Assembly: GCA_021513695.1 (NCBI GenBank)
Contig: CP084166.1
Span: forward strand, 32,001-96,000
Direction of reading: 5' to 3'
Length of the DNA stretch: 64,000 nucleotides
Source of the DNA: Candidatus Heimdallarchaeum aukensis
GTDB taxonomy: Archaea > Asgardarchaeota > Heimdallarchaeia > Heimdallarchaeales > Heimdallarchaeaceae
Position 1 is the first letter of the stretch; each line of letters starts with the position of its first letter. Of the stretch, positions 13,262 through 62,638 are shown in pieces. The notes beneath the pieces are model-generated. The model searched no databases. It was not told the origin of the DNA and saw nothing but the letters and a program-made list of their open reading frames with translations. The position numbers and the translations under genes are program-made.

Positions 13262-14251
13262 TTAATGTTCAATAAATTCTTTCTCGCTTATAACTTTACA
13301 TGTTAATGTTTTAGCAGCAAAAGGTATGAAACTTTTTTCTAGCTCCTTTTTAACCTTTTCAAAAATCAAATAGCGATTTTCTTCACTTGTTAGATCCAAA
13401 GTAATGATTTCAGTTAAATTTTCTATTAATGTAAGCAAAGGACCTTTTTCTATTAGTACATACTCTGTTGTTACTAATAAAGCAATGTTATGATAACTAA
13501 TAAACAGTAGTTTATATTCCTCAAAGTTAATTTCTTCCATTGAACTAAGTTGTTTTTTGTTTGTTGAATTTAGCCACTTATTCTCATAAGCACTAATTAT
13601 GTTCTTAACTTTTTCTCTGGTTCTTGTATTATCGTGTATATGAAGATTAACTCCGTCTTTTTTAATGAAAATATCTACCGATAAAATGTTTGGCATTAAT
13701 CCTGTTTTTTTACTAACCAACTTGCTTATTAACCAATTCATCGCATCGCTTATGTATTCGCCTGTTTTGACTGAAATGAAAAAGAATCGAAAACTCATCT
13801 GACTTTCAATTGAAATTAATTTGTTAAGTTCAAATCCTTTAACAATTTCTTCAATAACTCTTTCTTTTTCTGTAATTAAGTCCATCTTATTACCTAGAAA
13901 AAGCACTGGTATATCTTTGTTTTTTATCCATTCTAAAATAGTATAGAACCATTCTTTACTTTCTGGTAAACTTTCTAAATTTGAAGCGTCAAAAATGAAA
14001 ATTAAAGCAGAGGAAAGATTAATGTAATTTTTCCAAATGTGCTTTCTGAATGCTTGGTGTCCCCCCATATCCCAAATTTGAAGGGGAAAACCTTGGTACT
14101 CGGTAAATTCTACATCAACACCTAAAGTCGGAGGAGAAGAAACAAAGGTTCCCGATAGTAACCTTTGGGTAAAGCTAGATTTTCCGGCTTGTGGAAGGCC
14201 AGTTATAGCAATAGAGAATCTTGTCATTTTTGAGTTCACTTCAATTAGCAC
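13262..14251 (-). CDS. Arf/Sar-family-like small GTPase with ~150-aa C-terminal extension of unknown function
   Basis: 329-aa ORF. P-loop GLPQAGKSS. PTLGVDVEFTEY resembles Arf PTIGFNVETVEY. Switch II WDMGGHQ (Arf WDVGGQ) followed by RKHIWKNY (Arf RPLWRHY). IFIFDASN (Arf IFVVDSND). NKMD (NKxD). C-terminal G5-like SVKTGEYISDAMNWLISKL (Arf ATSGDGLYEGLDWL). Confidence 0.8.
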   Translation of the reverse strand: MLIEVNSKMTRFSIAITGLPQAGKSSFTQRLLSGTFVSSPPTLGVDVEFTEYQGFPLQIWDMGGHQAFRKHIWKNYINLSSALIFIFDASNLESLPESKEWFYTILEWIKNKDIPVLFLGNKMDLITEKERVIEEIVKGFELNKLISIESQMSFRFFFISVKTGEYISDAMNWLISKLVSKKTGLMPNILSVDIFIKKDGVNLHIHDNTRTREKVKNIISAYENKWLNSTNKKQLSSMEEINFEEYKLLFISYHNIALLVTTEYVLIEKGPLLTLIENLTEIITLDLTSEENRYLIFEKVKKELEKSFIPFAAKTLTCKVISEKEFIEH

Positions 14252-34618: not shown

Positions 34619-34709
34619 TTATCGTATAGTACTCTTTAGAGTTCTGGGATTGGAATTGGGGCTATTATTTCCTGGAGTAAGTAATTGAAAATTGAAAAGA
34701 AGTGTAAAA

Positions 34710-37700
34710 ATGAAAAAAAGTAAAATTAAAGTTATTTCTATTATCGCTATTTTTCTTCTCATCTTGAACGTCTCGACGATATACGTTCAAGGTCAGATGG
34801 TAGGTAATGAAACTAAATTAATGATGACTGGAAATCCTACAGAAGTTTATGAAGATCAGATAGCGATTCTGTATGATCCATTTAATGATATGACAAGAGA
34901 ACTAGCAAATTCGATTTATGAGACTGTTCATATGTTTTATTCTAACGTGAAAATGGTCAAAGTTTTCAATTTAGATTCATTTAACAGAGCTTTTTATGAT
35001 GATGATTGGATTAAAATCTATGTTTTCGACTCTGACTTAAAAGGAATAAAATTTGCTGGTTGGACAATGTCATGGAGAAAACTAACTGGATACTACAATG
35101 TTTTCAAAGATACAAGGCACATTGGAGTTTATGGAAACTCATACAAGATGGGTCCATATCTTAAGACTGAAAACTGTTATATAGAAAATACAGAGATTCT
35201 AGATTATCGTATTGCTTACATTCATGTATTGTGGTCATTATATGATATTTTTACAGAAAAAGAAGATGAAATTCTTCAACAAATAGGAGAAAATTTCAAA
35301 TTAATAGCAATTAAATATTTTGGAGATTCATTTGAAGAAATAATGTCTGCCGAGTTTGATCCACAAGGATTAGGTGTTGTTGACCCAAAAAAGGCAGAAG
35401 AAAGATTACAAGATTCAATGGACCAATATCCAAAGAGATTAAATAAAGTTAATCCATATACGGGTGAGTTAGTTGATCCAACAGCAGAGATTGAAGGATT
35501 TAATCCTGTAATGGATATTAAACCCAAAGCAGCGATAGATGAAGATGACATTGTTTTAGGTGAGTTTCCGTTCTTATCTTCGATTCCTGGAGCTGCAGGT
35601 GACGTTATTAAAATAATTTTAGAGTTTATAGGTGTCGAGATACCAGAAGGTTTATTGACTGTAGGTAAAGAATATGGGGGGCAGATCGTCGCAATAATTA
35701 AAGAGATACCTAAAATTATTGGTTTCTTTAAGGATCCAAGTGCAAGTAGTGCTATTGAACTATTTTTTGATGTAGCAAAAGAAATGTTTCCCAGTATAGA
35801 AGAATATAAGCCCTACTTCGATATAGTAGTGAAAGCCCTATTTTCGATAAAAGATATTGCTTCAGGGGATCTTACTCCTTTAATTGATATATCAATGGAA
35901 CTTCTACGATTTATAATTCCTGATAGTGTAGGAGATTTTGTTGACGATGTTTTTGATGCTTTAAACATATCAAGTGCCCTTTCTGATATTATTAGTGGAG
36001 TTACTAATGTTGGTGATTATCTTAAGAGTTTTCTCAATAGGCAACTAATTACAAATTTAATGAAGAAATTTATTGAACAGACTTTAGATCTAGGGGGAGA
36101 ATCCCAAAAATGGATAGATACCATTTCAGAGATTATTATGATTGCTTATGAAATTGCCAGCACTCGAGATATGGATCACATAATAGCGGATGTCTTTCCA
36201 CGATTAGGAAAATTAGTTTACAAGAACATCTTAGATATGACCTATGATGAAAATGTAGAAAATACCTTCAAAGGAATTGCTGTTGCAATTAAGATGGGTT
36301 TTGGAGCTGCTGGAATCATTGATGTTAATCTTAAGGATTCATTTATGGATTTAATAGGCTTCTTCTTCCCTGACCTCGTTGAGACAGTTAATGATGTTAA
36401 ATTCTTTGTTTCAAGTATTAGGTCTCAAATTGATTCCTTTATGGATCTTGTTAAAGATGTTTCAGAAGGTAAAAATCTAGATGTAAACAACGTTCATGAC
36501 CAAATTATATCTTTAATTACTGAGCTTAGTTCATTATCAGGTCATTCTCTCGATGCAAATAAGATAAATGTACTCTCTCAAGCTGTTTTGATGGCTTTAG
36601 CTCTAATAAATGGTGATTTTGAAGCTTTAAGTGATACTAGCTGCCTAACAAGTCTAGTTGATGGATTTCTAGAACATTTTATTGGACTAGAAGAAGGTCC
36701 TAGAGAAATTGTACAAAAGGCAATAGAAGCTGGAGCAGCTATTTTACCTTTCATTACTGGGAAAAAGAGTTTGAAAAAATATATTATGGGAAGACTTGAA
36801 GATTTTGCTGACAAATTCAAGAATCCTGGAGAAATAATTGAAAAGGTTCTTTATTATTTCCTAAGCAAGTACAACGCAAGTACTCAACTTTACCAACTTA
36901 TTGGAAAAATTGTAGGAATAGTCATTGACATCTTTTCTGGAGGATTTGACTTTTCTGTTCAAAATGTTATTCAGACAATAATCTCAATGGCAGTTGTAGT
37001 TTTGAACATGTTAGATGTCAATATTCCGTTAGAAGCAATGTACAAGAGTTTTCAACTTCTATGGGAAGAGGGGCCAGAATTTTCCAATGTTGTAAAAGTA
37101 GTTCAAGATATTATGGGATTACTTGGAGGAAGCATTGACCCAACAATTAAAACTACTGTAGAAACAGTTCTTACTTTTCTAGGAGGAGCAAAGAATATCT
37201 TCAAAGATGGAATAAAATGGATAATGAACCAACTTGTAGGTTGGGCAGCAGGGCAGATTGCTAATTTATTAAATATGCTTACTGATAAATTAAATGAACT
37301 GTTCCAATCTCTTGGTGATTTGGTAAGTTATGATTCTGAATTCCCAATTGGTTTCGGAAGTTTTACTGCCTTCCAGATGCGAGTATTCTTCTCTTTAAGT
37401 CCTGGATTCGAAATTAACCCTGAACCAATTCAAGAGCTCATTATGAGTATGATTTTTGATGGGTCAAAGGTTTTTGATCTCGATAATATCGGAGAATTGT
37501 TTAAGCTTATCTTAAAATCAATTTCAATTATTCCTATTTTCAAAGCTGGACTTGAAATCAAAGCAGGAACGTCTGGAAAGAACGACTTAATGAAGATGCT
37601 CCTTGATTCTCTTGGTCTGGAACTTTCATTCTCTGGCTCTGCAGGACTAACACTGCAATTAATGAAGATTTCTAATGGTAAAATAAGTACTAGTGATTTC

Positions 37701-40700
37701 TTCAAAGTAATAGAATTCTTCTTTAAATTCCAGATATCAATAGCTAAAACATTCCCATTAGCAGAATTTCTAGGTCCAGGAGGAGCAGTTTTAGCTAAAG
37801 TTGCAGAATTCTTAGGTTTAGGTGGAATTTACCTAAAGATAGAGTTCTTTATAGCAATAGAAATTGTTAAACGATGTGAGACACCTACTCAGAAGGCTGC
37901 AGATATTTTAACAATTGTAATAGGAATAGGTGTTTCTGTAATTATTGATATCGACTTGGTAATTGTTGGAATAAAAATAACTATAGGTTTTGTAGTGACG
38001 CTGACGTTTATCCAGGACTTCTTGGCGGACGCACCGCTGCAAGTGATACTCGAGATAGAGTTCACTGTAGCGGTGAAACTGACGTTCTTGTTCGTCGACT
38101 GGACAGGAACAGCGTCATGGGGTCCAGATCCAATTTATCTGGCAGGAGGACCGGATGATGAAAGCACAAAAGACGAAATGAGCGGCTTGGACGCAGATGG
38201 GGATGGGTTACCTGATTCATATGAGTTAGGAGTTCCAGGAATGAAAGTAGACAGCGATGACAGTGATGGAGACGGTTTATCAGACCAATTCGAAGTGAAA
38301 ACGAGTAAAACAGACCCTATCACTGCAGATTCTGACGATGATGGTCTAGATGATTACATGGAATATGAAGTCTTAAAGACCAATCCTCTACAAGTAGATA
38401 GTGACTATGATGGTTTAACTGACTATGAAGAAGTTGTTATCTATGGAACTGATCCTAATGCACAAGATACAGATGGTGATCAATTAGATGACTATTACGA
38501 AGTAAATACTGCATGGAATATCACTGGAATAACTCCAAGTGTAAGATTTGTTACAATTGGGGGAGTAGAGTATAAAGATCATACTGATCCTCTTAATCCT
38601 GATACTGATGGTGATGGACTTCTAGATGGACAAGAAGGAGAATTTGGGGCTTATTATGGACCAGAATTGTATAACACTTCAGACCCAAGTTGGGATCCCT
38701 ATCCAATATTCTACAATCAAGGATATACTCATCCATTAGATAATGATACCGATGATGATTCTTATAAACAATTAGCAAATGGAACTATAGCTCCAGATCG
38801 TCAGTTCTTAATCTATATGTCTGATAAGGTAGAAATAGATGGACAATGGGTTATTTTCATTGAAGATGATGAATTAATGGGTAGAGTAGTTAGAACTAAC
38901 CCAATTAACCCTGATACTGATGGTGATTCAGCAGTAATGGATAAATCTTGGAGAGGTGATGGGGCTCCTCTTGACTTTTTCCTGAAGTCTGATGGTTACG
39001 AACTCTGGTTAGATCCGCCGACAGACCCGAATGACGCGGATATGGACGATGATGGATTAATTGACGGTTTAGAGGGTTGGGGTAATAAGATCAGTAATCA
39101 TACTGATCCTCGTAATCCTGATACTGATGGTGATGGACTTGGAGACCTGCAAGATATTCTACTCGGTTCGGATCCTTTGAACCCTGATAGTGATATGGAT
39201 GGAATTCTAGATGGTGAGGAGTTCTTCAAGTATGGAACTAACCCCGCTTATGAAGATACAGATCATGATGGGCTTTTGGATGGTGAGGAAGTTTATCTAT
39301 TCCACACAAACCCTCTGGCGGTAGATAGCGATGGAGATGGGATAGATGATGGAATGGAGGTATTAGTTTATGGTTCAGACCCGATGGATGAAGATATGGA
39401 TAACGACGGTCTAACAGACTGGGAAGAGATTTTCTACTACTTTACCAATCCTAGAGATTACGACTCAGATGATGATGGTCTAAGTGATGCTATGGAGGTT
39501 TTAGATGAATATGCTATATACACTGACCCATTGAATTGGGACTCTGATAATGATTCAATCACATATCCTAATGAAAACGGAAATTATACTTTCCCACTTT
39601 CTGATGGAGATGAAGTACTAATTTACGGAACTGACCCATTGACAAGCGATACTGATGGAGATGGATTGCACGATTCGTTTGAACTATATCTTGGTTCAGG
39701 TTTAATTTACAACTTTACTCCTGTACCTTTGGATCCGTTATCTAACGATACTGATGGAGATGGAATATATGATGCAAATGAATACCACATTGCAAATGTC
39801 TCTAACATCATTTATCCTTATGTTAGTTTTATCATCACCCAACCTTACAATACTTCTCCAGTAGATCCAGACTCTGATGATGACGGGATTATCGATGGAG
39901 ACGAAGTCTATGTATATGGAACTATGCCAGATATGAAAGATACAGATGGAGATGGACTAGACGATTGGAGTGAACTTAATATTATGTATACTAACCCTCT
40001 GAGTTCGGATACGGACAATGACTATCTGACAGATTGGGAAGAATGGTATGCGGGTTTTGAACATCCAGGATATCTACTTGATCCTAACGACCCTGATTAT
40101 GATAATGATATGCTGCCAGATGGGCCAGAGTTACTACTTTACGGTTCTAATCCTAATAATGCCTATGAGATTGATCCAAGTTCAGGAAAAGTCGATGGTC
40201 TGTTGATGGATTGGGACCATGATGGTCTAGAAGATGGTTTAGAGTTCTTTGTATACAACACTAGTTATGTAGCAGGAGGAGGAGTCACCCAGCCAGATAG
40301 TGATAGAGATGGTTTGATGGATGGTGCAGAAGTATATGTTCATGGTACAGTCCCCACGAATTGGGATACTGACAATGATACATATAGTGATGGATTAGAA
40401 GTGATGTTAGGACTAGATCCTCTTACATATACAACAGAAGAGGAATTTATAGCAGCTCTATCTGCAAATCAAGATATGCTAGAAGCAGGAGTACTAGTTA
40501 TCTCACCAATAGAAGGTGGAATTTACTCTCCTTCTAACTATACTTTCATCCTCTATAACGTGACAGAACTACTGGGCGTACAATATCAAATGAAGAAGAA
40601 CAAACAAGATTTCGGAGACAACATGAGTATGTACTATGATGATGTTTCAAGGACGTGGATAACTCAAGGAGATTATATTGGACCTGGAGATTATATCGTC

Positions 40701-49113: not shown

Positions 49114-49791
49114 ATGTTGATGGTACCTACTCAGATGAAAAAAATAACCATACTAGGGACAACTGGTAGTGGAAAGACCACCTTTTTAGAAGCTTTATTT
49201 GGTGATTTTGAAAAAAATGATGTTAAAAGAGATTTGAGTAAAGAAAAAAGTTCAAATTGTGATTTTATTCCTTTGAAAAATAATACATTCAAAGAAAGTA
49301 CAACAACAATAAGTTTGAATGTCATTAATTCATTGCTTTATTTGACTACATTTAATCGATTAGGTTTAGAAAAGTTCGAAAATAGAGACAATATTGACTT
49401 TGAAAATGTTGAAGAGATTTATCAAATAGTTTTCAATGATCCTGCAGGACAAGAAAGATTTGATTTCATGCAAGAGATAGCAGTAAGAGGAGCAAACCTA
49501 GTAATTATAATGGCTGATGGCACAAATATCTCGAGTTTAGAAAAAGTAGTTCATTATATTTCGTTGGTAAAAATTGAAGAAAATCTATCTAAAAAGAAAA
49601 TACCGACTATTATTTTCATCAACAAATCTGATTTAAAGGAAAAGGGTGTTTATTTAGGAAAAAATGTAGCTGAGCAGATTATTTATTCAAGCATTCTTGA
49701 TGAGAAATTACTTATTTATGAAACTTCTAACCTTAAGAGAGAAACATATGATGAACCTTTGAGGATTATTTTTAACTATCTTTCATACTAA
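49114..49791 (+). CDS. Ras-superfamily (Rab/Ras-like) small GTPase
   Basis: 225-aa ORF. P-loop GTTGSGKTT. Switch II DPAGQERF (Rab/Ras DTAGQE). NKSD (NKxD). About 70-aa insertion between G1 and G3. Real start may be the internal Met (MKKITILG) at 49135. Confidence 0.75.
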   Translation: MLMVPTQMKKITILGTTGSGKTTFLEALFGDFEKNDVKRDLSKEKSSNCDFIPLKNNTFKESTTTISLNVINSLLYLTTFNRLGLEKFENRDNIDFENVEEIYQIVFNDPAGQERFDFMQEIAVRGANLVIIMADGTNISSLEKVVHYISLVKIEENLSKKKIPTIIFINKSDLKEKGVYLGKNVAEQIIYSSILDEKLLIYETSNLKRETYDEPLRIIFNYLSY

Positions 49792-49843: not shown

Positions 49844-50818
49844 ATGAGCGTAAAAATAACCTCAGAATATATAGAGCTGCTGAATAAAGCAGTTGCAAGA
49901 GAATTACAAGTTTCTGTTCAATATTTTCTACAACACGCTAAAATTGAAAAAATAATGAGAAAAGTTAAAGCTGAAAATATTTTACTTGATTCCACAACTT
50001 ACGACCAGATAGGTCAGATTTTAAAGAAACTAGCAATAGAAGAAATGAAACATGCAGGATCAATCGTTGAGAGAATTTATTATTTGGGAGGCAAGGCAAC
50101 AACTAAAGCTTTTAAACCTAAAATAGGAGAAAATATGCAAGAATTTATGAAATATGGCTTTGAAGCTGAAGAAGAAGCTTTAGAATTATATCGTGAAATA
50201 ATCCGCGAGGCAGGTAAATTAGGAGATTATGATACTAAAGAACTCTTTAGGAAAATCTATAGAGAGGAAGAAGAACATCTTTATACGTTTCAAGAATATT
50301 TAACAATTAATATTAGTGAACCTGGAGAGACAGCACCAAAGTCCGAATGGAGAAAAGTTTTTGACGACGAATACTTTGCTCTATTAAACAAAGCCTTAGC
50401 TTCAGAACTGTCTGCTATTATTCAGTACATAACCCAACATGAAAAAGCGAGTGCAATCAATCTTAGGAAAAAAGAAACGCCTTTAGAAGTAATTACCAAT
50501 ACAAACAAAGCGCAAGTTATTAGTAACATGTTAAAGAAAATCTTTATGCAAGAAATGGAACATTACGAAAAGATTTCTGAAAGAATATACATGTTGGATG
50601 GAGAATGTACATTGGATCCTGATCCTTTGCCAAAAGTTGGTGAGAGCGTAGAAGATTTCTTGAAACTGGGTCATCAAGCTGAAGATGAAGCTATTGTTCT
50701 TTATCGTAAAATCATAGAAGAAGCTACTAAGAAGGGAGATATAACTACTAAGAAGATGTTTGAAGAAATATTGATGGAAGAAGAAGAACATTACTGGATG
50801 TTTGATGACTACTTGTAA
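49844..50818 (+). CDS. Tandem-duplicated ferritin-like (bacterioferritin/rubrerythrin-fold) diiron protein
   Basis: 324-aa ORF with two ~150-aa halves. Each carries ferroxidase-type E...QY/E..H ligand motifs (ELQVSVQYFLQH + EEMKHAGSIVERIYYLGG; ELSAIIQYITQH + QEMEHYEKISERIYMLDG) and the conserved E-x-x-H second pair (EEEHLYTFQEYL; EEEHYWMFDDYL). Confidence 0.7.
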   Translation: MSVKITSEYIELLNKAVARELQVSVQYFLQHAKIEKIMRKVKAENILLDSTTYDQIGQILKKLAIEEMKHAGSIVERIYYLGGKATTKAFKPKIGENMQEFMKYGFEAEEEALELYREIIREAGKLGDYDTKELFRKIYREEEEHLYTFQEYLTINISEPGETAPKSEWRKVFDDEYFALLNKALASELSAIIQYITQHEKASAINLRKKETPLEVITNTNKAQVISNMLKKIFMQEMEHYEKISERIYMLDGECTLDPDPLPKVGESVEDFLKLGHQAEDEAIVLYRKIIEEATKKGDITTKKMFEEILMEEEEHYWMFDDYL

Positions 50819-50888: not shown

Positions 50889-51254
50889 ATGAGTAATATA
50901 AAGAAACTCACTTTTTCTGTAAATCAAAGTAGAAGAGTGATTCGTGCAGCAGAAAACAAGAAAATTGAACCTAAAGAATTGCTTAAAGGTTATGAGCTTA
51001 TGGTAAATACCCTCTTTAAGCATTGGAAAGAAGAATATGCTGAAACTATGGAAATTGACTTTCAAACATTTTTTTATGAAATAATGAAATATGCTGAAGT
51101 TAAATATAGATTAGAAAAGACCAAGTCTGATCTAAAAAAAATAAAAGAAATGTCAGAGTTGTTAAACGAAGCCATTGAAGAATATAAAGAAGATTATACA
51201 ATTTTGAAGGCTATAGAAGATAGTTTGAGAAATATGGGTGTTGAGTGGGTTTAA
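50889..51254 (+). CDS. Hypothetical protein
   Basis: 121-aa K/E-rich ORF with no recognisable domain. Directly abuts the next ORF (stop/start TAAATG). Confidence 0.4.
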   Translation: MSNIKKLTFSVNQSRRVIRAAENKKIEPKELLKGYELMVNTLFKHWKEEYAETMEIDFQTFFYEIMKYAEVKYRLEKTKSDLKKIKEMSELLNEAIEEYKEDYTILKAIEDSLRNMGVEWV

Positions 51255-51704
51255 ATGAAATTGAATATTACCCAATTTAAGATTAAATTCAAGGATAAAA
51301 TAGAAATTGAAAATGAAGAGAAATTTGCAGATAATATAATCTATTATTATCCGTTTTTTCAATCTTTAGATAAAAATGAGTTAGAGAAGTCTCTTCAATC
51401 AATAAGAGAAGAAAAAAAAGTCTTGGAGAAAAAATTCAAAAAAATAAAAGAAGAGTTCTCAGATATACTGGGAGAGATAGCAAAAATACGTTTCACAGCT
51501 AATGAATTATATAATCAAAATAGGGTTATAGCTCTGACTACAGGGTTATTAAGACATAAGCTGATAGATTTACATAATAATAATGTTGAACTTCCTTTTG
51601 ATTATGAGGAAACACTTAAGTTTGTAGAACATTTTATTTATAGATATTTAACTAAAAAAGAAGATAAAAGACTTGTTGCCCAGCTACCTTTTAAAGAGAT
51701 TTGA
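51255..51704 (+). CDS. Hypothetical protein
   Basis: 149-aa ORF with no recognisable domain. Upstream of the serine recombinase gene. Confidence 0.4.
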   Translation: MKLNITQFKIKFKDKIEIENEEKFADNIIYYYPFFQSLDKNELEKSLQSIREEKKVLEKKFKKIKEEFSDILGEIAKIRFTANELYNQNRVIALTTGLLRHKLIDLHNNNVELPFDYEETLKFVEHFIYRYLTKKEDKRLVAQLPFKEI

Positions 51705-51783
51705 GAAAATTCACACTTTTTCTATTTGGAATAGTAATACTAAGTTTTATATTAAAAATAGAGAACCTTATTGCAAGGTCAAA

Positions 51784-52506
51784 ATGATTCGTTGTGTTAT
51801 TTATGCTCGTACATCTACAGCTGATCAAACTAGTGGGTTAGAAACACAGATTGAAGATGTAACGGCTAAGATATATCAAGCTGGAGATAGAGCAATAGTA
51901 AGAATAATTAAAGATCAAGATATTGCAGGCGATAGTGACCCTGAATATAGACCCGGATTTAAAGAAATCCTAGAAATGGCAAAGAATAATCAATTTGATG
52001 AGTTATGGTCTCAATCAAGAGACAGATTGTCAAGAGACGTTGATATTTTGGGTTATATTCGCATTCTTCTAAAAAAGAATAATGTTTCTATAGTTTGTTT
52101 AGATGATGAAGAAAACAAGGTTATTTCTAGAGTTAAAGACCTATTTGGTGAAATGGAACTTCAAAAATATAGAGAAAAAAGATACAAAGGAATGATGAGA
52201 AGACTAAAGGAACAAAAAGTAATGTCAAGACCTCCTTTTGGTTATAAAGTGAATGAGGAAGGAAAATTAGTTGTAGATGAGGAAAAAGCAGCAATAATTA
52301 GAAGGCTCTTTTCTGAATTTGACAACCCTTTGGCTTCTTTGAAAAGTTTAAGTTTGAAATATAATTTATCTGTCTCTACACTGCGAAATATTCGTTCAAA
52401 CCCAATTTATCGAACTGGTGAAGTACGTTGGGCAGGAAAAATTGCTTATTATGTTGATCCTATTGTCCCTGAAAATAAAGATCAAAAACTTAAGTTAGAC
52501 GACTAA
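51784..52506 (+). CDS. Serine recombinase (resolvase catalytic domain + partial 'recombinase' domain; truncated large-serine-recombinase-like)
   Basis: ATG 51784 (MIRCVIYARTSTADQ = Y.R.ST..Q catalytic-serine motif). RDRLSRD (SRLSR-like). Downstream recombinase-domain pattern RPPFGYKVNEEGKLVVDEEKAAIIRRLF ... STLRNIRSNPIYRTGEV. The protein ends about 60 aa later, with no zinc-ribbon or coiled-coil region. TATA-like TTTTATATTA about 35 nt upstream. Confidence 0.7.
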   Translation: MIRCVIYARTSTADQTSGLETQIEDVTAKIYQAGDRAIVRIIKDQDIAGDSDPEYRPGFKEILEMAKNNQFDELWSQSRDRLSRDVDILGYIRILLKKNNVSIVCLDDEENKVISRVKDLFGEMELQKYREKRYKGMMRRLKEQKVMSRPPFGYKVNEEGKLVVDEEKAAIIRRLFSEFDNPLASLKSLSLKYNLSVSTLRNIRSNPIYRTGEVRWAGKIAYYVDPIVPENKDQKLKLDD

Positions 52507-56912: not shown

Positions 56913-58769
56913 ATGAATAAAATAAATATTATATTAACCTATTTAGTGGTTTCTAGTTTTCTTATCCTCTCTGGATCTGTTTATGCTGCCGATGTTTCTG
57001 GTTCAACAATTGAAGCTTCACCTTCTGATATTTATGAGTATCAGATAACTAGTATTACTGTTACTTCAAAGAATGGAGTAGGTACTGCACTTGGAGGAGT
57101 AACTGTAAATATCTCTGCTCAAGAAGGTTCCTTTGTTGAAAATGAGATGAAGTACATAATCTTAACTACAAATGACAATGGTATTGCTTCCGCTGATTGG
57201 AAAGCTCCTGAAGCTAAGAGTGCAGTAGAAGCTAAAGAAGTTACAATAACTGCTGTATTCACTTCTGGTAGTGATACAGCTACAAAAGAATTAAATGTAA
57301 CTGTTCATCCTCTTTCTTTTGATACAAGTACTATAACTATAAGCCCAGATCCAGTTTACGAGACACAGAATTCAACTATTGAGATAACTGCAAAAGGTAC
57401 ATACGGAACCATTGCAGAAGCAAATGTTCATCTAACTTGTGACGATGGAGTGTTTCCAGATTCTGATACTTTCGAGATAGATGTCCAAACAGATTCAGAT
57501 GGAAAAGTTCAAGTTATCTGGAATGCTGATTTAACTACATTAGTTTCTGAACTAAACTATGTTAACTTTACTGCTACAGTAACTTATAGCGGTTCTACAG
57601 CCACTAAAGACTTGACTGGAACTATTTATGTTAATGAACTAGATTTGAGTAGTTCAACAATGGTTGCGTCAAGTACGGATGTAGGAGGAGGGACACATGT
57701 TTCTATTGTTGTTACTGCAGAGGGAGCTTTAGGAGTGATTTCTAACGCAAGAGTAGAGTTAGACGCTCTTGATGGTAAATTCTCCAATAACGAACAAGAT
57801 ATTACAGGATATACTAACTCTTCAGGAATGTATGAGACAGAATGGATAGCTCCTGATGTTTCAAATGCTATTGACATTATAATCTCAGGAACAGTTTCTG
57901 TTGATAACACTCTCGCAACTAAGGATCTAGATGATATAACAATTACTGTTAATCCTATAGTTCACAACTTCACAATAAGTTTAGATGCAAATGCTACAGA
58001 AATAACAGCTGGAGAACCTGTAGAATTAACTGTAACTTTGACTAATGAATTAGGTTATACTGTAGAAGATGCAGAGATTACTTTCAATGCTATGGAAGGA
58101 GAATTTGTAGGTTTTGATGCTCTAACTGCTAAGATTAACAGTTCATCTGAAGGAATTGCTTCTGTAGTATGGAATACAACTGATTTATCTCCACCAATAC
58201 CTAATGGACAGGATTATCCTATAACTATTAATATAGTTAAAGAATTCTATAATTCTGAAGAAGATTCAATAGATATACATGTTAATCCTATTATCCTTAA
58301 ACTAAGCTCTAGCACTACTCCAGATAAGACAACTATAACTCAAGGAGAAAATGTTACATTTACTGTTTTTGTTAGTGCTGGAGAACAAGGAGTAGAAGGA
58401 GCAACTGTAACTATAACCGCTCTAGCAGGTACTTTTGCCAGCAGTGGGAATCAAATTACTTCACTAGAAACAAATTCCACTGGATATGTTACTTTTGTAT
58501 GGATAACAGAAGATATGACAGTAACAACTGCAAAGAACTATACATTTACTATCGATGCAGCCCTTCCAGGATATGATTCATCAGAACAAGAAACAGTTAC
58601 TATATTAGTTAATCCAGTTGATACAGGAGGAGCAGAACCTACACAAACTACTACTCCTACAGGAGGATTGTCTACAATGACTAAACTAGGTATCCTTCTT
58701 GGAGCACTTGGAGGAGTGGTTCTATTAGGAGGTTTAGGTTACTTCTTAATTAGTAGACGAGGTATATAA
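56913..58769 (+). CDS. Secreted surface protein with about 5-6 tandem Ig-like (Big/invasin-like) domains, T/P-rich stalk and C-terminal TM anchor
   Basis: 618-aa ORF. Signal peptide INIILTYLVVSSFLILSGSVYAADVSG. Repeated ~100-aa beta-sandwich modules (TKDLTGTIYVN..., TKDLDDITITVNP..., SIDIHVNPI...). C-terminus PTQTTTPTGGLSTMTKLGILLGALGGVVLLGGLGYFLISRRGI. Stop is 1 nt before the next gene. Confidence 0.8.
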   Translation: MNKINIILTYLVVSSFLILSGSVYAADVSGSTIEASPSDIYEYQITSITVTSKNGVGTALGGVTVNISAQEGSFVENEMKYIILTTNDNGIASADWKAPEAKSAVEAKEVTITAVFTSGSDTATKELNVTVHPLSFDTSTITISPDPVYETQNSTIEITAKGTYGTIAEANVHLTCDDGVFPDSDTFEIDVQTDSDGKVQVIWNADLTTLVSELNYVNFTATVTYSGSTATKDLTGTIYVNELDLSSSTMVASSTDVGGGTHVSIVVTAEGALGVISNARVELDALDGKFSNNEQDITGYTNSSGMYETEWIAPDVSNAIDIIISGTVSVDNTLATKDLDDITITVNPIVHNFTISLDANATEITAGEPVELTVTLTNELGYTVEDAEITFNAMEGEFVGFDALTAKINSSSEGIASVVWNTTDLSPPIPNGQDYPITINIVKEFYNSEEDSIDIHVNPIILKLSSSTTPDKTTITQGENVTFTVFVSAGEQGVEGATVTITALAGTFASSGNQITSLETNSTGYVTFVWITEDMTVTTAKNYTFTIDAALPGYDSSEQETVTILVNPVDTGGAEPTQTTTPTGGLSTMTKLGILLGALGGVVLLGGLGYFLISRRGI

Positions 58770-58770
58770 T

Positions 58771-61494
58771 ATGTTTAGGAAGAAGAGAGGAGTTTCTCCT
58801 GTAATTGCAGTTGTTCTGATACTTGGTCTTACCTTAGCTGCAACTGCAATTGTTTTTCTAGTTGTACTTCCAATGGTAAATCAAAGAAATGCTCCTGAGT
58901 TATACATTGATGAGACTTCAGCACCTTTGTTTATGGATTACGATAATGATGGAAAATGTGACTATATAACTGTCCAAGTTGGAAATATCGGTGGGAGTGC
59001 GTTTAATGTTACTAATATAACGATCGTAGCTTCCAAAGATAGTTCGTCCAACTTCTACACTTGGGAGTTAATGGATAATGTAAATGGGACAATAGGTGTA
59101 AATGATCGTGTTCTATTAAAGATGAGGGCTGCTGTAGATGATACTGATGAAATAGATGATGGTTCAAGTCTAATTTTAACACTAATAAATGACCAATATA
59201 TTGTAGGTCTAGAACTTGGGACAATTACTGTTGAACAAGGAGAACCACTATCTATTGAATTTACTGATTCTTCAGGAGATCCTGTTGTTGGTTCTAATAT
59301 TTATTTCTACTATTCCACAGGAGAATTTGCTTACACAGGGGAACCAACATCTGTTAGTGGTGTTTCAAACACTTATCTATTTCCAGGGACTTACTATGCA
59401 AAAGCTCAATCTGGAATGCAATTCTACACCACAGATGTTTTTATTCATCCAGGAACACCCCAATTACATTTAGAGATGTCTGGAGGAACTTTAACTGTTA
59501 AAGTTAAATCAGGTACAACACCTTTAAGTGGTGTAAGAACTTATTTGTATGATACCTATAGCCATTATTTGAATAAATACTCTGATACTAATGTTGATGG
59601 ACTAGCTACTTATTCTCTTGATGATGGAGTGTATAAGATCAGAGCAGATGTTTCTGGAATAGTCTATTATTCAGAAAATATAAACTTCCCAAATACAACT
59701 TATATAGAAATTGACACAGGAGGAGGTACTGTTTATGCTCACGTAATTGATGGAGGAAATAATCCAATAGTCAACACTCGTGTCTATCTTTTCACCTCAA
59801 GTGGAAGCTACACTGGTAAATACGGTAACACCAATGCTACAGGGTATGCTGAATTTGCTGCAGTTTCAGGAGGAACTAATTATAAGTTTAGAGTAGATTA
59901 CTTGGCTTATAGAATCTGGAGTCAAACCTTTGGAGCTTCAGATGGGGCAGTTATTGATGTTAATGTAGGAGGAGGAACAATATATGTCAATGTAACTGAT
60001 GGTGACGGCAATCCAATAAAGAACACTCGTACATATCTCTTTACTTCAAGCGGAAGTTATACTGGTAAATACTCGAATACAAATACAAGTGGAATAGCCA
60101 CTTACAGCTCTATAGCTGCTGGAGATTACAAGATTAGAATTGACTATCTTGCTCAAAGATTCTGGAGCCCAGTTTTCACTGCTTCAAATGGATTAATAGT
60201 TAATGCATCTATAGGAGGAGGAACACTTTATGGAAATATTACTGTGGCTGGAAATGCTTTAGTTAACACTCGTGTTTATCTTTTCACTTCAAGTGGAAGT
60301 TATACCGGTAAATATGGAAATACAAATGCTTCTGGAATAGTAACATTTGTTGGAATAGGCACTTCTAACTATAAGTTAAGGGTAGATTACCAAGCAGATC
60401 GTCATTGGTCAGATGTTTTCTATTTCAATGAAACAATGGTTTATCACTTTGAACTAGGTGGAGGAACAGTTTATGCCAATGTCACTGCTGGAGGGGTACC
60501 AGTTGTCAATACTAGAGTCTATGTATTCACTGATAGCGGAAGTTATACAGGAACTTATGCAAACACTAATGCTTCAGGAATAGCAACATTCAACACATTA
60601 AGCAGTGGAGACTACAAATTCAGAGTTGACTACCTCGCAAAAAGATTCTGGAGTGATGTATTCACTGCCAGTGATGGTTTAGTTGTAGATGTTGATTTAG
60701 GTGGAGGAACAATATATGTCCATTTGACTAATACCTATGGTGTAGATATTGCTAATGTACGTCTCTATCTCTTCACTTCAAGTGGAAGCTACACAGGTAA
60801 GTATACAAACACAAATGCTACGGGTTGGGGAGTTTTTGCAGGAATAGGAGAATCAGACTATAAAGTACGTGCAGACTATCTAGCAAAAAGATACTGGTCA
60901 AACGTATTTACTGCAACCGACGGATTAAATGTAGATTTCAATATAGGTGGAGGAATAGTTTGGTTACATGTGTTTGACGGAAGTGGGACAAATATAAGCG
61001 GACCAAGAGCTTATCTCTTTACTGAGAGCGGAAGTTATACTGGAATCTACAGAAACCTGGATGCTAATGGATATCTGAACTTTACTGGAATAGGTGATGG
61101 TAACTTCAAATGGAGAGTCGACTATCTTGCAAAAAGATTCTGGTCTGATGTTTTCTCTGCGACAAACGGTACAACTTTAGAATTCAACATCGGTGGAGGA
61201 ACAATATACGTTCATCTAACAGTTAATGGTGCTGATGTTAATAACGGAAGAATATACTTGTTTACAGATACTGGTAGTTATACTGGAAAATATGCAAATA
61301 CAAACTCTACAGGTTGGGCAGTGTTCTATGGAATTGGAGCAGGAGATTATAAGTTGAGATATGATTATGATGGAACACGTTATTGGAAGAATTTCTCCGC
61401 AGATGCAGATTTACAGGTAGGGTTTGCTATTGTAACCACAATGACCCTTTCTGTATTAACAGTTCAACCTTCTAAGTCAAAAGAAAATTATTAA
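58771..61494 (+). CDS. Large (907 aa) protein with archaeal class III (type IV pilin-like) signal peptide and 8 tandem ~83-aa beta-sandwich (carboxypeptidase-regulatory-domain-like) repeats
   Basis: N-terminus MFRKKRGVSPVIAVVLILGLTLAATAIVFLVVLPMV matches the archaeal pilin/class III signal pattern ([KR]-G-[VA]-S-P-V-I-A + hydrophobic). Eight repeats such as GGGTIYVNVTDGDGNPIKNTRTYLFTSSGSYTGKYSNTNTSGIATYSSIAAGDYKIRIDYLAQRFWSPVFTASNGLIVNASI. Confidence 0.85.
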   Translation: MFRKKRGVSPVIAVVLILGLTLAATAIVFLVVLPMVNQRNAPELYIDETSAPLFMDYDNDGKCDYITVQVGNIGGSAFNVTNITIVASKDSSSNFYTWELMDNVNGTIGVNDRVLLKMRAAVDDTDEIDDGSSLILTLINDQYIVGLELGTITVEQGEPLSIEFTDSSGDPVVGSNIYFYYSTGEFAYTGEPTSVSGVSNTYLFPGTYYAKAQSGMQFYTTDVFIHPGTPQLHLEMSGGTLTVKVKSGTTPLSGVRTYLYDTYSHYLNKYSDTNVDGLATYSLDDGVYKIRADVSGIVYYSENINFPNTTYIEIDTGGGTVYAHVIDGGNNPIVNTRVYLFTSSGSYTGKYGNTNATGYAEFAAVSGGTNYKFRVDYLAYRIWSQTFGASDGAVIDVNVGGGTIYVNVTDGDGNPIKNTRTYLFTSSGSYTGKYSNTNTSGIATYSSIAAGDYKIRIDYLAQRFWSPVFTASNGLIVNASIGGGTLYGNITVAGNALVNTRVYLFTSSGSYTGKYGNTNASGIVTFVGIGTSNYKLRVDYQADRHWSDVFYFNETMVYHFELGGGTVYANVTAGGVPVVNTRVYVFTDSGSYTGTYANTNASGIATFNTLSSGDYKFRVDYLAKRFWSDVFTASDGLVVDVDLGGGTIYVHLTNTYGVDIANVRLYLFTSSGSYTGKYTNTNATGWGVFAGIGESDYKVRADYLAKRYWSNVFTATDGLNVDFNIGGGIVWLHVFDGSGTNISGPRAYLFTESGSYTGIYRNLDANGYLNFTGIGDGNFKWRVDYLAKRFWSDVFSATNGTTLEFNIGGGTIYVHLTVNGADVNNGRIYLFTDTGSYTGKYANTNSTGWAVFYGIGAGDYKLRYDYDGTRYWKNFSADADLQVGFAIVTTMTLSVLTVQPSKSKENY
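59482..61440 (+). repeat. Eight near-tandem coding repeats, unit 243-249 nt, encoding the ~83-aa modules of the pilin-signal protein
   Basis: Recurrent unit starts (ggaggagga/ggtggagga...ac..t.tatg..) at 59482, 59719, 59968, 60214, 60457, 60700, 60946 and 61192. Spacings are 237/249/246/243/243/246/246 nt. Confidence 0.85.
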
Positions 61495-61496
61495 TT

Positions 61497-61530
61497 ATCT
61501 CTTTCTTTTTTCTTTTTTCCTTTTGCAATT
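61497..61530 (+). terminator. T-rich terminator-like tract after the pilin-signal repeat-protein gene
   Basis: ttatctctttcttttttcttttttccttttgc after stop 61494. Confidence 0.35.
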
Positions 61531-61570: not shown

Positions 61571-62638
61571 TTAATTTTTGTTTTTGATTTCGTTTACTCT
61601 TCTATAGGGGTAAATAGGTATTTCTTCTAAACAGTTAGGACATTTTAAATCTACTGTCATATTGGTATAAGTTACTGACATTAGATCTCTCTTTACTAAA
61701 AGTTCAGAGCAAATAGGACAAAAAGTATTCTGTAGAGGATGACCAGGAACATTTCCGAGATAAACATACTTCAATCCTTCATTTTTTGCAATAGAATGAA
61801 CTTTTTGAAGAGTATCTATTGGAGTTGCAGGTATTTCAAACAAATAATGTGGAAAATATCTAATAAAATGAACTGGTGTATAAATTGAAAGATTTTGTTT
61901 TATTTTTTCTACAAATTCTATAATTTGTTCTTCTTCATCGTTAAATTCTGGAATAACTAGATATACAATCTCTATATGGACGCCAGATTGATAGGCTGAT
62001 TTAACATTTTTCCAGATTTTTTCAAATTTAACATCAAGATTATGTTCTATTTTTTCACTAATTCCCTTAAAAGAGACCGTCATTCCGTTCATTCCAGCAT
62101 CTATGAGTAAATCTAAAGCATAAGGTGACATATATCCATTTGTCACATAGTGTTTGTAATAGGTAGGATCAATATTCTTGAAAACATCAACAGTATATTC
62201 TAATGAGAGCGTAGGCTCATTGAAAGAAAAAGAAATTCCTTGAATACTAGGGTTTGTTCTAATAGTTTCAATGACTCTCTCAATAGAAAGAAGACTAGAA
62301 TTAAGAAAATCTTGCGGAGGAGGACGTTTTGAAATTTCAAAATTCTGGCAAAATTCACAAGGAAAATTACATCCCCAAGAACCAAGAGTAAGAGCTGTGG
62401 ACGTTGGATAGTAATGATAAGCAGGTTTTTTTTCTATTGGATTTAAGTTATAGCTTGAAATATCTGAATATTCAATACTATATAGCTTTCCTTCATAATT
62501 TGCTCTTACCTTGCAGTAACCTAGTTCTCCTTTTTCTATAATGCAAAATCTGTTACAAGTTAGACACTGTACTTTAGAATCATCGAGTTTTTTGTATAAG
62601 TAAGCTTCTTTAATTCTTGGGTCAGTCATAGAGTTCAT
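61571..62638 (-). CDS. Radical SAM enzyme, AmmeMemoRadiSam-system type (pyruvate-formate-lyase-activase-like)
   Basis: 355-aa ORF. N-terminal Cys cluster CLTCNRFCIIEKGELGYC. Canonical Cx3Cx2C in GSWGCNFPCEFCQNFEIS. Overall TIGR04337-like layout. Confidence 0.7.
   Translation of the reverse strand: MNSMTDPRIKEAYLYKKLDDSKVQCLTCNRFCIIEKGELGYCKVRANYEGKLYSIEYSDISSYNLNPIEKKPAYHYYPTSTALTLGSWGCNFPCEFCQNFEISKRPPPQDFLNSSLLSIERVIETIRTNPSIQGISFSFNEPTLSLEYTVDVFKNIDPTYYKHYVTNGYMSPYALDLLIDAGMNGMTVSFKGISEKIEHNLDVKFEKIWKNVKSAYQSGVHIEIVYLVIPEFNDEEEQIIEFVEKIKQNLSIYTPVHFIRYFPHYLFEIPATPIDTLQKVHSIAKNEGLKYVYLGNVPGHPLQNTFCPICSELLVKRDLMSVTYTNMTVDLKCPNCLEEIPIYPYRRVNEIKNKN

Follow-up and report, generated by a model that had tools for sequence, protein, structure and literature searches.

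The window analysed here, a 64-kb stretch of the roughly 3.08-Mb genome of Candidatus Heimdallarchaeum aukensis, contains a giant modular pilin gene and, immediately upstream, the gene of a membrane-anchored partner protein (Table 1). The pilin gene starts with ATG and encodes 907 amino acids plus a stop; its product begins MFRKKRG↓VSPVIAVVLILGLTLAATAIVF (arrows mark processing sites), and the sequence agrees exactly with the coordinates, length and N-terminus given in the preliminary description. An identical protein is on public record as UJG40929.1 and already bears the name "type IV pilin [Candidatus Heimdallarchaeum aukensis]". In the encoded product, a small but complete archaeal pilin carries nine beta-sandwich modules arranged as a long stalk. 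Its size had been presented as exceptional, which is overstated: among the nearest relatives of the pilin module (138 representatives of 50% clusters), 72 are at least 300 aa and 25 at least 800 aa long. Long proteins with this module are common among its relatives; about half are long.

Table 1. Positions of the giant pilin gene, its parts and adjoining elements within the 64-kb window.
Feature	Position	Strand	Basis and remarks
Partner gene, 618 aa	56913..58769	+	Sequence; homologues upstream of giant pilin in related loci
Shine-Dalgarno-like GAGGT, 8 nt 5' of giant pilin ATG	58759..58763	+	Sequence; putative function
Giant modular pilin gene	58771..61494	+	907 aa, profile matches, identity to UJG40929.1
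Leader peptide MFRKKRG, aa 1-7, predicted prepilin-peptidase cleavage after Gly7	58771..58791	+	Conserved motif, Iho670 alignment, PMC4371748 criteria
Hydrophobic N-terminal helix alpha-1 (H-domain), aa 8-40	58792..58890	+	AlphaFold2, family conservation
Beta-sandwich head of pilin module, aa 41-154	58891..59232	+	
DYDNDGKCD loop, aa 56-64, DxDxDG-type putative Ca2+-binding motif	58936..58962	+	Conservation, AlphaFold2 loop
Two divergent beta-sandwich modules, R1 (aa 155-236) and R2 (aa 237-310)	59233..59700	+	
Seven tandem beta-sandwich repeats R3-R9, 81-83 aa, aa 311-884	59701..61422	+	Identity, profiles, AlphaFold2, Foldseek
C-terminal tail, aa 885-907, low model confidence	61423..61491	+	Poorly conserved
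T-rich tract 3' of stop, candidate archaeal oligo-T terminator	61499..61524	+	Sequence; putative function

The partner protein carries a Sec-type signal (MNKINIILTYLVVSSFLILSGSVYA↓AD), followed by tandem Ig-like repeats and a Thr/Pro-rich linker, and ends in a transmembrane helix and the tail SRRGI; Pfam returned sub-threshold matches only. Its stop codon (TAA, 58767-58769) lies 1 nt before the pilin ATG, and the GAGGT motif falls inside the 3' end of the partner gene. A partner homologue sits directly upstream of the giant pilin in seven related loci (L001, L004, L005, L006, L012, L013 and L014); the pairing is kept at all Heimdall loci examined and recurs in a distant class of 1282-1287-aa proteins. 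The partner homologues (n=10) come from Heimdallarchaeaceae only, six of them on contigs equal in size to giant-pilin contigs. The earlier proposal of an operon with an Ig-like-domain surface protein gene at 1-nt spacing is supported by the sequence and by conservation of the pair across loci; the partner, probably co-transcribed, is a conserved companion of the giant pilin and perhaps acts as a membrane-proximal dock or co-adhesin. On the 3' side, the T-rich tract is common to the giant pilin gene and a convergent gene at 61571..62638. Scans of the window for tRNAs and Rfam families gave no matches.

Class III signal and pilin module

Archaeal class III signals have their processing site before the H-domain, with Gly, Ala or Ser at -1 and a charged residue at -2 (PMC4371748); the predicted site in the giant pilin has Arg at -2, Gly at -1 and Val-Ser at +1/+2 (K-R-G↓V-S-P-V), and the sequence from V8 to about Q38 is free of charged residues. 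The processing sites of Haloferax PilA proteins read RA↓VS (PMC4371748). The Pfam profile PF07790 (Pilin_N) matches residues 6-90 with 37.3 bits (cutoff 25.2), and NCBIfam TIGR02537 (arch_flag_Nterm) matches residues 5-32 with a score of 21.4 (cutoff 20). The motif [KR][GA]↓VSPV is kept in all 22 aligned members of the giant-pilin family, and the solved filament subunit Iho670, which in its mature form begins VSPVIATLLL..., aligns from V8 onwards. In the AlphaFold2 model a helix occupies residues 10-40; behind the hydrophobic stretch there is no small-residue cleavage motif, and the helix runs on into the pilin-fold head. Mean pairwise identity within the family is highest in alpha-1 (62%), followed by R3-R9 (56%) and the head (31%). 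The bacterial N-methylation motif of IPR012902 (G↓F/M-T-L-x-E) is absent; the site reads G↓VSPVIA, with neither Phe/Met at +1 nor Glu at +5.

Sequence and predicted structure together support the view that the N-terminus is a class III (prepilin) signal of archaeal type and that the pilin module carrying it is genuine; the class III assignment in the preliminary description is borne out by Pilin_N and TIGR02537 scores above their cutoffs, the Iho670 alignment, the fold matches and homology to short pilins. Sec signals have a similar outline, with a hydrophobic stretch after a basic N-region, and the N-terminus might accordingly be read as an ordinary Sec signal or uncleaved signal-anchor with a superficial likeness to pilins; this is extremely improbable, since the hydrophobic stretch continues into a pilin-fold head instead of ending in a cleavage motif, the curated pilin profiles are passed, the conserved motif coincides with the start of a solved mature subunit, and fold and profile homology both indicate pilins, grounds on which an ordinary Sec signal is rejected, whereas a typical one, ending VYA↓AD, is found in the partner protein.

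In the predicted structure, residues 1-154 form a full pilin module with the 'lollipop' fold, in which a long alpha-helix at the N-terminus leads into a beta-sandwich head; this predicted fold is matched best by archaellins and archaeal type IV pili of solved structure. When an alignment of the N-terminal 158 aa was compared by hhalign with 15 short Heimdall pilins (132-142 aa), the match reached 99.7% (E 6.9e-26) over 126 aligned columns, columns 2-128 of 140 in the template and hence almost the entire short pilin. Judged by sequence, aa 8-154 of the giant pilin are a complete pilin module and a whole-length homologue of the 132-142-aa pilins of the same lineage. The short pilins (a sequence starts MKKRGVSPVIAT...) have the invariant N-terminus MKKRGVSPVIATxLLIALVTAAAAIVFLVVxPM, to which that of the giant pilin is closely similar; metagenome 3300033141 contains both a short (P0134) and a giant pilin (P0002).

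In contrast to the short Heimdall pilins, the giant pilin head contains an invariant DxDxDG loop, DYDNDGKCD, which is an insertion relative to them and lies between strands in the AlphaFold2 model. Within the consensus DYDxDGxxD, all 22 sequences agree at D56, Y57, D58, D60, G61 and D64, and the 1287-aa class carries the same head motif as DFDGDGKAD. EF-hand and dockerin profiles match the loop weakly, and 12 non-pilin proteins matched this segment, each in 6-24 stretches. The loop probably serves as a putative Ca2+-binding site.

Beta-sandwich stalk

The eight repeats counted in the preliminary description become nine modules, namely seven clear units of ~82 aa and two divergent ones. R3-R9 are mutually 40-65% identical and share the signature GGGT.Y..V...G.....R.YLF..SGSYTG.Y.NTN..G...F......YK.R.DY.A.R.WS. 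while R1 and R2 show 16-41% identity to other modules. Codon-aligned DNA identity among the repeat units is 53-66%, and Tandem Repeats Finder detected no DNA-level tandem repeats in the giant pilin gene; the duplications are therefore old, and a recent repeat expansion is ruled out.

The suggested CarboxypepD_reg/transthyretin-like beta-sandwich fold holds in profile, model and fold searches. PF13620 (CarboxypepD_reg) reaches 56.8 bits (cutoff 32.3) and covers six stretches of the protein, and Big_1 (54.6) and Ig_DR_A0283-like (41.2) also exceed their cutoffs; AlphaFold2 (pLDDT 87.8, and about 90 in R3-R9) predicts all-beta units with six to eight strands in each 81-83-aa unit, and Foldseek matches the stalk to the TIE protein, Gram-positive pilins, SdrD and macroglobulins. 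SlaB appears at rank 45 among the fold matches. PF13620-type repeats like those of the giant pilin also fill bacterial RHS/YD proteins. N-glycosylation sequons number 19, compared with 11.9 +/- 3.1 expected. On these predictions aa 155-884 are an elongated extracellular stalk of nine CarboxypepD_reg/transthyretin-like modules, enriched in sequons. The C-terminus, ...FAIVTTMTLSVLTVQPSKSKENY, has neither LPXTG or another sorting motif nor a terminal transmembrane segment with a basic tail; a C-terminal anchor is ruled out, the tail being short, poorly conserved and modelled with low confidence.

The top whole-chain fold matches are the prealbumin/CnaB-like strings of Gram-positive adhesin and sortase-pilin stalks (BcpA, SpaC, PitA, the SdrD B-repeats and the B. 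anthracis TIE protein); the TM-scores are low because the chains are flexible. Stalks of this kind hold an adhesive tip away from the cell. Unlike sortase pilins, the giant pilin lacks LPXTG and is anchored by its N-terminal pilin helix, and the likeness is one of fold only.

Proposed assembly and display, and comparison with known systems

The preliminary description had found no assembly ATPase or platform gene in the window, and this is upheld: secretion ATPase, platform and peptidase A24 families are missing from the 42 window ORFs of at least 110 aa. No prepilin peptidase, ATPase or platform gene occurs within 10 kb of 14 related loci, nine with giant pilins (L001, L004-L006, L012-L015) and five with short pilins; unannotated neighbours of the short pilins at L007-L010, translated or scanned, are soluble or NfeD-like proteins and include no peptidases. 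The giant pilin gene and its partner form an isolated pair surrounded by housekeeping genes. The Haloferax pilins PilA1-6, which share a conserved H-domain needed for assembly, are not linked to assembly genes either (PMC4371748), and linkage is therefore not required. Type IV filament systems are described as widespread in most archaeal phyla except Asgard archaea, and some Heimdall/Asgard genomes have core-only filament loci with candidate pilins encoded elsewhere (preprint 10.64898/2026.04.22.720090). Pili, pilins and archaella are nowhere mentioned in the text and 25 supplementary files of Wu et al. (2022; PMC8813620).

The giant pilin resembles the Pilin_N (PF07790) adhesion pilins, such as PilA1-6 of Haloferax volcanii, the type IV pilin of Saccharolobus solfataricus (PDB 8fjs) and Ignicoccus Iho670, in its class III motif (Arg/Lys at -2, Gly/Ala at -1, V-S-P-V at +1 to +4) and in combining an alpha-1 helix with a beta-sandwich fold; with Haloferax PilA1-6 it also shares a gene position away from assembly genes and an H-domain highly conserved within the lineage. 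These pilins measure 130-300 aa, whereas the giant pilin adds nine beta-sandwich modules, about 750 aa. In this respect it is comparable to bacterial modular pilins (Streptococcus sanguinis PilB/PilC, ETEC CofB), in which non-pilin modules are grafted C-terminally onto an N-terminal pilin module (PMC8179133). The giant pilin likewise combines a complete N-terminal pilin module with C-terminal modules of a type not specific to pilus biology. In their InterPro survey, Raynaud et al. (2021; PMC8179133) list PF13620 among the frequent grafts and include an 860-residue multi-repeat case; archaea are nowhere mentioned in its text. The bacterial set is defined by IPR012902 (G↓FTLxE), in contrast to the archaeal G↓VSPV without Glu5; lacking this motif, the giant pilin is an archaeal analogue of the modular design and not a member of the bacterial set. 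Furthermore, the PilB/PilC genes sit in a pilus locus whereas the giant pilin gene lies apart from assembly genes, and no conserved C-terminally anchored partner like that of the giant pilin appears among the bacterial cases in the passages of PMC8179133 consulted.

Judged by its architecture and by analogy, the giant pilin is most likely a surface adhesin displayed via the pilin pathway. The preferred reading, to which a probability of roughly 55% is assigned, is that of an archaeal modular type IV pilin co-polymerised with short pilins as a low-abundance or tip subunit. The precursor would enter the membrane through Sec, and a prepilin peptidase of the PibD/FlaK type, whose gene would lie in another part of the genome, would cleave it after Gly7. 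Alpha-1 would keep the protein in the membrane until the ATPase and platform of a type IV filament system pull it out and build it into a polymer together with short pilins of very similar alpha-1. At about 3.5-4 nm for each Ig-like domain, the stalk that it would display as a low-abundance or tip subunit of the filament would measure an estimated ~30 nm, and would serve in holding on to surfaces or partner cells. Of the two options in the preliminary description, a minor or tip pilin and a bindosome-type surface protein, the first is tentatively preferred, and filament incorporation with it is favoured over simple membrane anchoring: the high conservation of alpha-1 relative to the rest of the protein, the similar N-terminus of the short pilins and the co-occurrence of P0134 and P0002 in one metagenome point to polymerisation, as does the Haloferax PilA1-6 parallel. 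Against polymerisation, packing along a filament would be difficult for a pilin head bearing a 750-aa rod, assembly genes are missing from the window and from the surroundings of the 14 loci, and filament systems are reported to be scarce in Asgard archaea (10.64898/2026.04.22.720090).

These last two observations also argue for an alternative, somewhat unlikely on the whole, in which the giant pilin is never polymerised and the class III signal and alpha-1 serve as a membrane anchor only, with or without removal of the leader; the protein and its anchored partner would then combine into a heteromeric fibril of envelope or adhesion type, standing on the cell or on its protrusions. The strict pairing with a membrane-anchored Ig-repeat protein suggests such a two-protein surface complex, and a parallel exists in type IV pilus loci of Pyrobaculum and Thermoproteus (Makarova et al., 2016; PMC4858521), where an 'adhesin or minor pilin', a large protein with a class III signal, is paired with an 'S-layer-like' protein whose one transmembrane helix is C-terminal. 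The adhesin-like proteins of subsystem 4G are also rich in Ig-like folds (10.64898/2026.04.22.720090). The likeness to these systems is one of outline, and their genes lie inside ATPase and platform loci whereas the giant pilin and its partner are found amid housekeeping genes. The SlaB fold match, at its rank of 45, is consistent with a surface fibril, and so are the Sulfolobus bindosome proteins, which use a class III signal without a classical pilus; like the giant pilin, they are large non-filament-like proteins with a prepilin signal and not classical major pilins (PMC4371748). However, bindosome substrates are sugar-binding proteins without a pilin head, while the giant pilin has this head and shows no solute-binding-protein family among its Pfam and NCBIfam matches at E <= 1. 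A full pilin head homologous to short pilins would be unneeded in a plain anchor, as would an alpha-1 more conserved than the rest of the protein.

Quite improbable is the broader proposal that the giant pilin and its C-terminally anchored partner constitute a previously undescribed Asgard surface apparatus, either as the material or tip of the 15-25 nm knob-tipped filaments at the contacts of cultured Heimdallarchaeia (Hodarchaeales) with their syntrophic partners, or as a pilin-anchored fibril without type IV machinery. The giant pilin might also be the major subunit of a thick decorated filament, with an alpha-1 core and the nine-module stalks arranged as a bottle-brush or sheath; the full pilin module with its conserved alpha-1, the very common occurrence of long proteins with the same module among its relatives, and the unexplained helical filaments of cultured Hodarchaeales, which at 15-25 nm are thicker than pili (preprint 10.1101/2025.02.26.640444), would fit this scheme. 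It is nevertheless highly doubtful, as the role of major subunit would better suit the invariant short pilins of this lineage.

Asgard archaea are tightly and physically partnered with other microbes. The current view of pilus biology is unchanged by this locus; the modular design is known, and the gene was already annotated as a type IV pilin. Archaea, too, make wide use of the grafted-module pilin design documented in bacteria. In Heimdallarchaeia, the genes of the giant pilin family, of its conserved partner and of the short pilins, whose helix is very similar, are concrete candidates for surface filaments and adhesion.

Pilin module and its conservation

The giant pilin gene has an ATG start and lies where the preliminary description had placed it (table); its product is identical in sequence to UJG40929.1 ("MAG: type IV pilin [Candidatus Heimdallarchaeum aukensis]", GenBank, 3.08-Mb contig) and 93% identical to its Ca. 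H. endolithica orthologue (UJG43838.1, CP084167.1). The protein is uncharacterised, though this automatic annotation as a type IV pilin already exists, and a literature search found no paper describing either the giant-pilin Heimdall family or its partner, the protein encoded just upstream.

The N-terminus, MFRKKRG/VSPVIAVVLILGLTLAATAIVFLVVLPMV (slash, predicted cleavage), carries Arg and Gly at positions -2 and -1 and Val-Ser at +1/+2, followed by about 30 uncharged residues; Haloferax PilA pilins are processed at RA/VS and DA/VS (PMC4371748). Pfam Pilin_N (37.3 bits, cutoff 25.2) and NCBIfam arch_flag_Nterm (21.4, cutoff 20) were both passed, and a search of PDB sequences with a profile built from the first 158 residues matched the Pilin_N filament subunit 8fj5 (E 0.006) and aligned VSPV at residue 8 to the start of the mature Iho670 subunit as solved, VSPVIATLLLILIAVAAAVLLYT. 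The class III (prepilin) signal proposed in the preliminary description is thus borne out by the motif, by both profiles and by the Iho670 alignment at V8.

AlphaFold2, given 18 family fragments, modelled the pilin module (pLDDT 91.5) as a helix (10-39) followed by an eight-strand sandwich. Searching 5.8 billion proteins with a profile recovered about 80 short Pilin_N proteins (132-157 aa) from Heimdall and Asgard MAGs, and a short-pilin alignment (n=15, 132-142 aa) matched the giant pilin's N-terminal module from end to end (hhalign 99.7%, E 6.9e-26, 126 columns). Because profile, fold and short-pilin alignment agree, residues 1-154 represent a full pilin, beyond a pilin-like signal; by all features tested the protein belongs to the archaeal Pilin_N family, and it is very likely a modular pilin with a class III signal.

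Conservation within the family is highest in the hydrophobic N-terminal helix, alpha-1 (pairwise identity averages 62% overall and 53% between the two subclades); the values are 56% and 42% for repeats R3-R9, and 31% and 20% for the pilin beta-sandwich head. The giant pilin N-terminus is close to that of the short Heimdall pilins, which is invariant (MKKRGVSPVIATxLLIALVTAAAAIVFLVVxPM). The head contains, as an insertion relative to the short pilins, an invariant DYDxDGxxD segment (aa 56-64) that forms an inter-strand loop in the predicted structure; a 1287-aa class of pilin-module proteins has DFDGDGKAD at the equivalent position. The segment resembles the DxDxDG calcium loops of FG-GAP and EF-hand proteins and is a putative Ca2+ loop, with weak statistical support.

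Beta-sandwich stalk and size

Anchoring on the GGGT motif delimited seven clear units of 81-83 aa (R3-R9, aa 311-884; mutual identity 40-65%), preceded by two divergent units (R1-R2, aa 155-310; 16-41% identity to the others); the tandem beta-sandwich modules reported earlier are real, but they number nine instead of eight. CarboxypepD_reg, Big_1 and Ig_DR_A0283-like profiles all exceeded their cut-offs and the repeats were modelled at pLDDT about 90, which upholds the proposed CarboxypepD_reg/transthyretin-like assignment. The full-length model reached pLDDT 87.8 and pTM 0.46, a low value that is expected because the architecture resembles beads on a string; its top whole-chain fold matches were adhesin stalks (B. 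anthracis TIE protein, BcpA, SpaC, PitA, SdrD, macroglobulins). The finding is real, and the original interpretation was correct.

The repeat units share 53-66% identity at the DNA level, and Tandem Repeats Finder detected no DNA-level tandem repeats in the gene. Orthologues (37-73% identity) are colinear and of similar length (843-933 aa), so module copy number varies by about one; the array appears old and stable. The protein has a single Cys and 19 N-X-S/T sequons (11.9 +/- 3.1 expected from shuffles), a density on par with the other secreted proteins of the window and above that of cytoplasmic ones; its C-terminus has no anchor or sorting motif.

The repeat type also fills bacterial RHS/YD proteins, so the stalk module is not confined to pili. 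Long arrays occur in RHS/YD-repeat and chitobiase-domain proteins (P0019-P0060, mostly Desulfobacterota; about 30% identity across about 80% of the query), which suggests an extracellular module common to Asgard archaea and sulfate-reducer-type bacteria, possibly exchanged.

The exceptional size implied by the preliminary description did not hold. An exhaustive HMMER search for the pilin module in 1.84 billion cluster representatives gave 1306 matches at E <= 0.001; among the best 150 of these, 138 have the module N-terminally, and of these 138, 72 have 300 aa or more and 25 have 800 aa or more. Six of eight checked have the same kinds of beta-sandwich domains; the other two have no Pfam match at E <= 1e-5. 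Bacterial modular pilins share this design; according to one survey, they comprise > 1,200 proteins in 264 architectures, with PF13620 a common graft and 860 residues the extreme case, and are defined by a bacterial N-methylation motif (PMC8179133). Because the giant pilin lacks that motif, it is an archaeal analogue, not a member, of the bacterial set.

Partner cassette and genomic setting

The partner has a typical Sec signal (…SGSVYA/AD), Ig-like repeats in tandem and a Thr/Pro linker; at its C-terminus, a transmembrane helix is followed by a short basic tail. Its stop codon precedes the giant pilin ATG by 1 nt, the spacing first reported, with a GAGGT motif 8 nt ahead of the ATG. Partner homologues immediately precede the giant pilin in related loci L001, L005, L004 (45% identity, E 4e-134), L006 (33%, E 1e-45) and L012; the genes flanking the cassette differ in L004 and L006. 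Detectable homologues (n=10) are confined to Heimdallarchaeaceae, 6 of them on contigs equal in length to a giant-pilin contig. The 1282-1287-aa class is also paired: 624-630-aa genes with Sec signal and C-terminal anchor immediately adjoin it upstream (4-10 nt gap), and the 624-aa gene is a partner homologue (29% identity, E 7e-28). Since this separate class also has an upstream anchored gene, the cassette predates the 907-aa family. Giant pilin and partner form a conserved two-gene cassette; its nearest analogue, known from Thermoproteales pilus loci, pairs a large protein bearing a signal peptide ("adhesin or minor pilin") with a large "S-layer-like" protein anchored at its C-terminus, and differs in sitting within an assembly locus (Makarova et al. 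2016, PMC4858521).

None of the 42 window ORFs of >= 110 aa encodes a secretion ATPase or platform protein, as previously noted, or a peptidase A24, and the window holds no class III signal besides that of the giant pilin. Assembly genes were also absent within 10 kb of the giant-pilin and short-pilin loci examined; the short pilins are located in conserved housekeeping neighbourhoods. Asgard archaea seldom have type IV filament systems, according to a 2026 preprint (10.64898/2026.04.22.720090); core-only or Aap-like ones occur in a few Heimdall genomes, with candidate pilins encoded elsewhere in them; the unlinked giant pilin matches this picture, which is not decisive for the H. aukensis genome. 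Such separation is normal elsewhere, as exemplified by Haloferax PilA1-6, which show no co-regulation with the assembly genes and rely on an H-domain that is conserved (PMC4371748).

Large surface proteins are unusually frequent in the window. Its G+C content (roughly 30%) and Arf/Ras-family GTPases agree with the origin from an Asgard (Heimdallarchaeia) genome that the sequence identity indicates; Arf-like genes also occur next to short pilins (L007-L009) and next to the 1287-aa pilin of L013. The FtsX-type permease proteins, a few genes away from short pilins, are another route joining beta-sandwich stalks to a membrane module. A dodecameric double-ferritin-fold protein of an Asgard archaeon is described, with mention of Heimdallarchaeum, in a 2026 bioRxiv preprint (10.64898/2026.08.25.747088). 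The Resolvase trio may represent a mobile element, active or reduced to a remnant, like those described from Heimdallarchaeum genomes.

Coordinates of the giant pilin cassette, related loci and other genes
Sequence	Coordinates (strand)	Feature
Window	56913-58769 (+)	Partner, 618 aa
Window	58771-61494 (+)	Giant pilin, 907 codons
Window	59701-61422	~82-aa repeats (…YLF..GSY.G…T…G…F…YK.R.DY.G.QFWS)
L013	8116-13864	1282-1287-aa pilin-module cassette
L014	8104-13849	1282-1287-aa pilin-module cassette
L007	10001-10399	Short pilin (132-142 aa, 33-residue N-terminus invariant); conserved neighbourhood of Rpb6, ribosomal L44e, succinyl-CoA ligase, GDPD, AdoHcyase
L008	10001-10408	As L007
L009	10001-10429	As L007
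L008	15970-20163	~1390-aa protein, FtsX-type permease domain and CarboxypepD_reg/Big_3 repeats
L009	16052-20221	As preceding
Window	259-3147 (+)	Secreted, ~1000 aa; right-handed beta-helix/NosD regions, TSP3 repeats
Window	3498-6614 (-)	As preceding
Window	13262-14251 (-)	Arf-family small GTPase, 329 aa (Asgard 'eukaryotic signature' type)
Window	34692-40913 (+)	2073 aa, bacterial TSP3 repeats, N-terminal hydrophobic signal; probably very large Ca2+-binding surface protein
Window	40913-48922 (+)	2669 aa, FG-GAP repeats, otherwise as preceding; tandem, one base common at junction
Window	49114-49791 (+)	Ras/Roc-like GTPase, 225 aa ('eukaryotic signature' type)
Window	49844-50818 (+)	324 aa, two ferritin-like stretches (double-ferritin fold)
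Window	50889-52506 (+)	Serine recombinase (Resolvase) after two small ORFs without family match
L005 (related Heimdallarchaeaceae contig)	587-2215	Same Resolvase and two-small-ORF trio

Proposed display on a filament and its alternatives

The class III motif, pilin fold and homology, beta-sandwich stalk, operon partner and conservation pattern are directly supported. The most likely reading, with a probability of roughly 0.55, is display on a filament by a minor or tip subunit bearing the stalk. The precursor would be inserted via Sec, cut after Gly7 by a PibD/FlaK-type peptidase and kept in the membrane by alpha-1; it would co-assemble with short pilins of very similar alpha-1 and present a stalk, roughly 30 nm long, that serves adhesion, and the partner would be its membrane-anchored companion. 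The main rival, a fibril that is never polymerised but is held by alpha-1 and forms a pair with the partner, would account for the strict pairing and for the assembly machinery missing from the searched window and loci; it is somewhat unlikely, given that the pilin head is complete and alpha-1 unusually well conserved. A thick filament made mainly of giant pilin is improbable, and an ordinary Sec signal at this N-terminus, set against the class III motif, is very improbable.

Cultured Hodarchaeales have unexplained filaments, 15-25 nm thick with ~50-nm tip knobs, at partner interfaces (preprint 10.1101/2025.02.26.640444); a link between them and the giant-pilin family is speculation, and a doubtful one. 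The giant pilin is of moderate interest for its partner cassette, its invariant putative Ca2+ loop and its many long pilin-module relatives, and the family may have a bearing on cell-cell contact in Asgard archaea.
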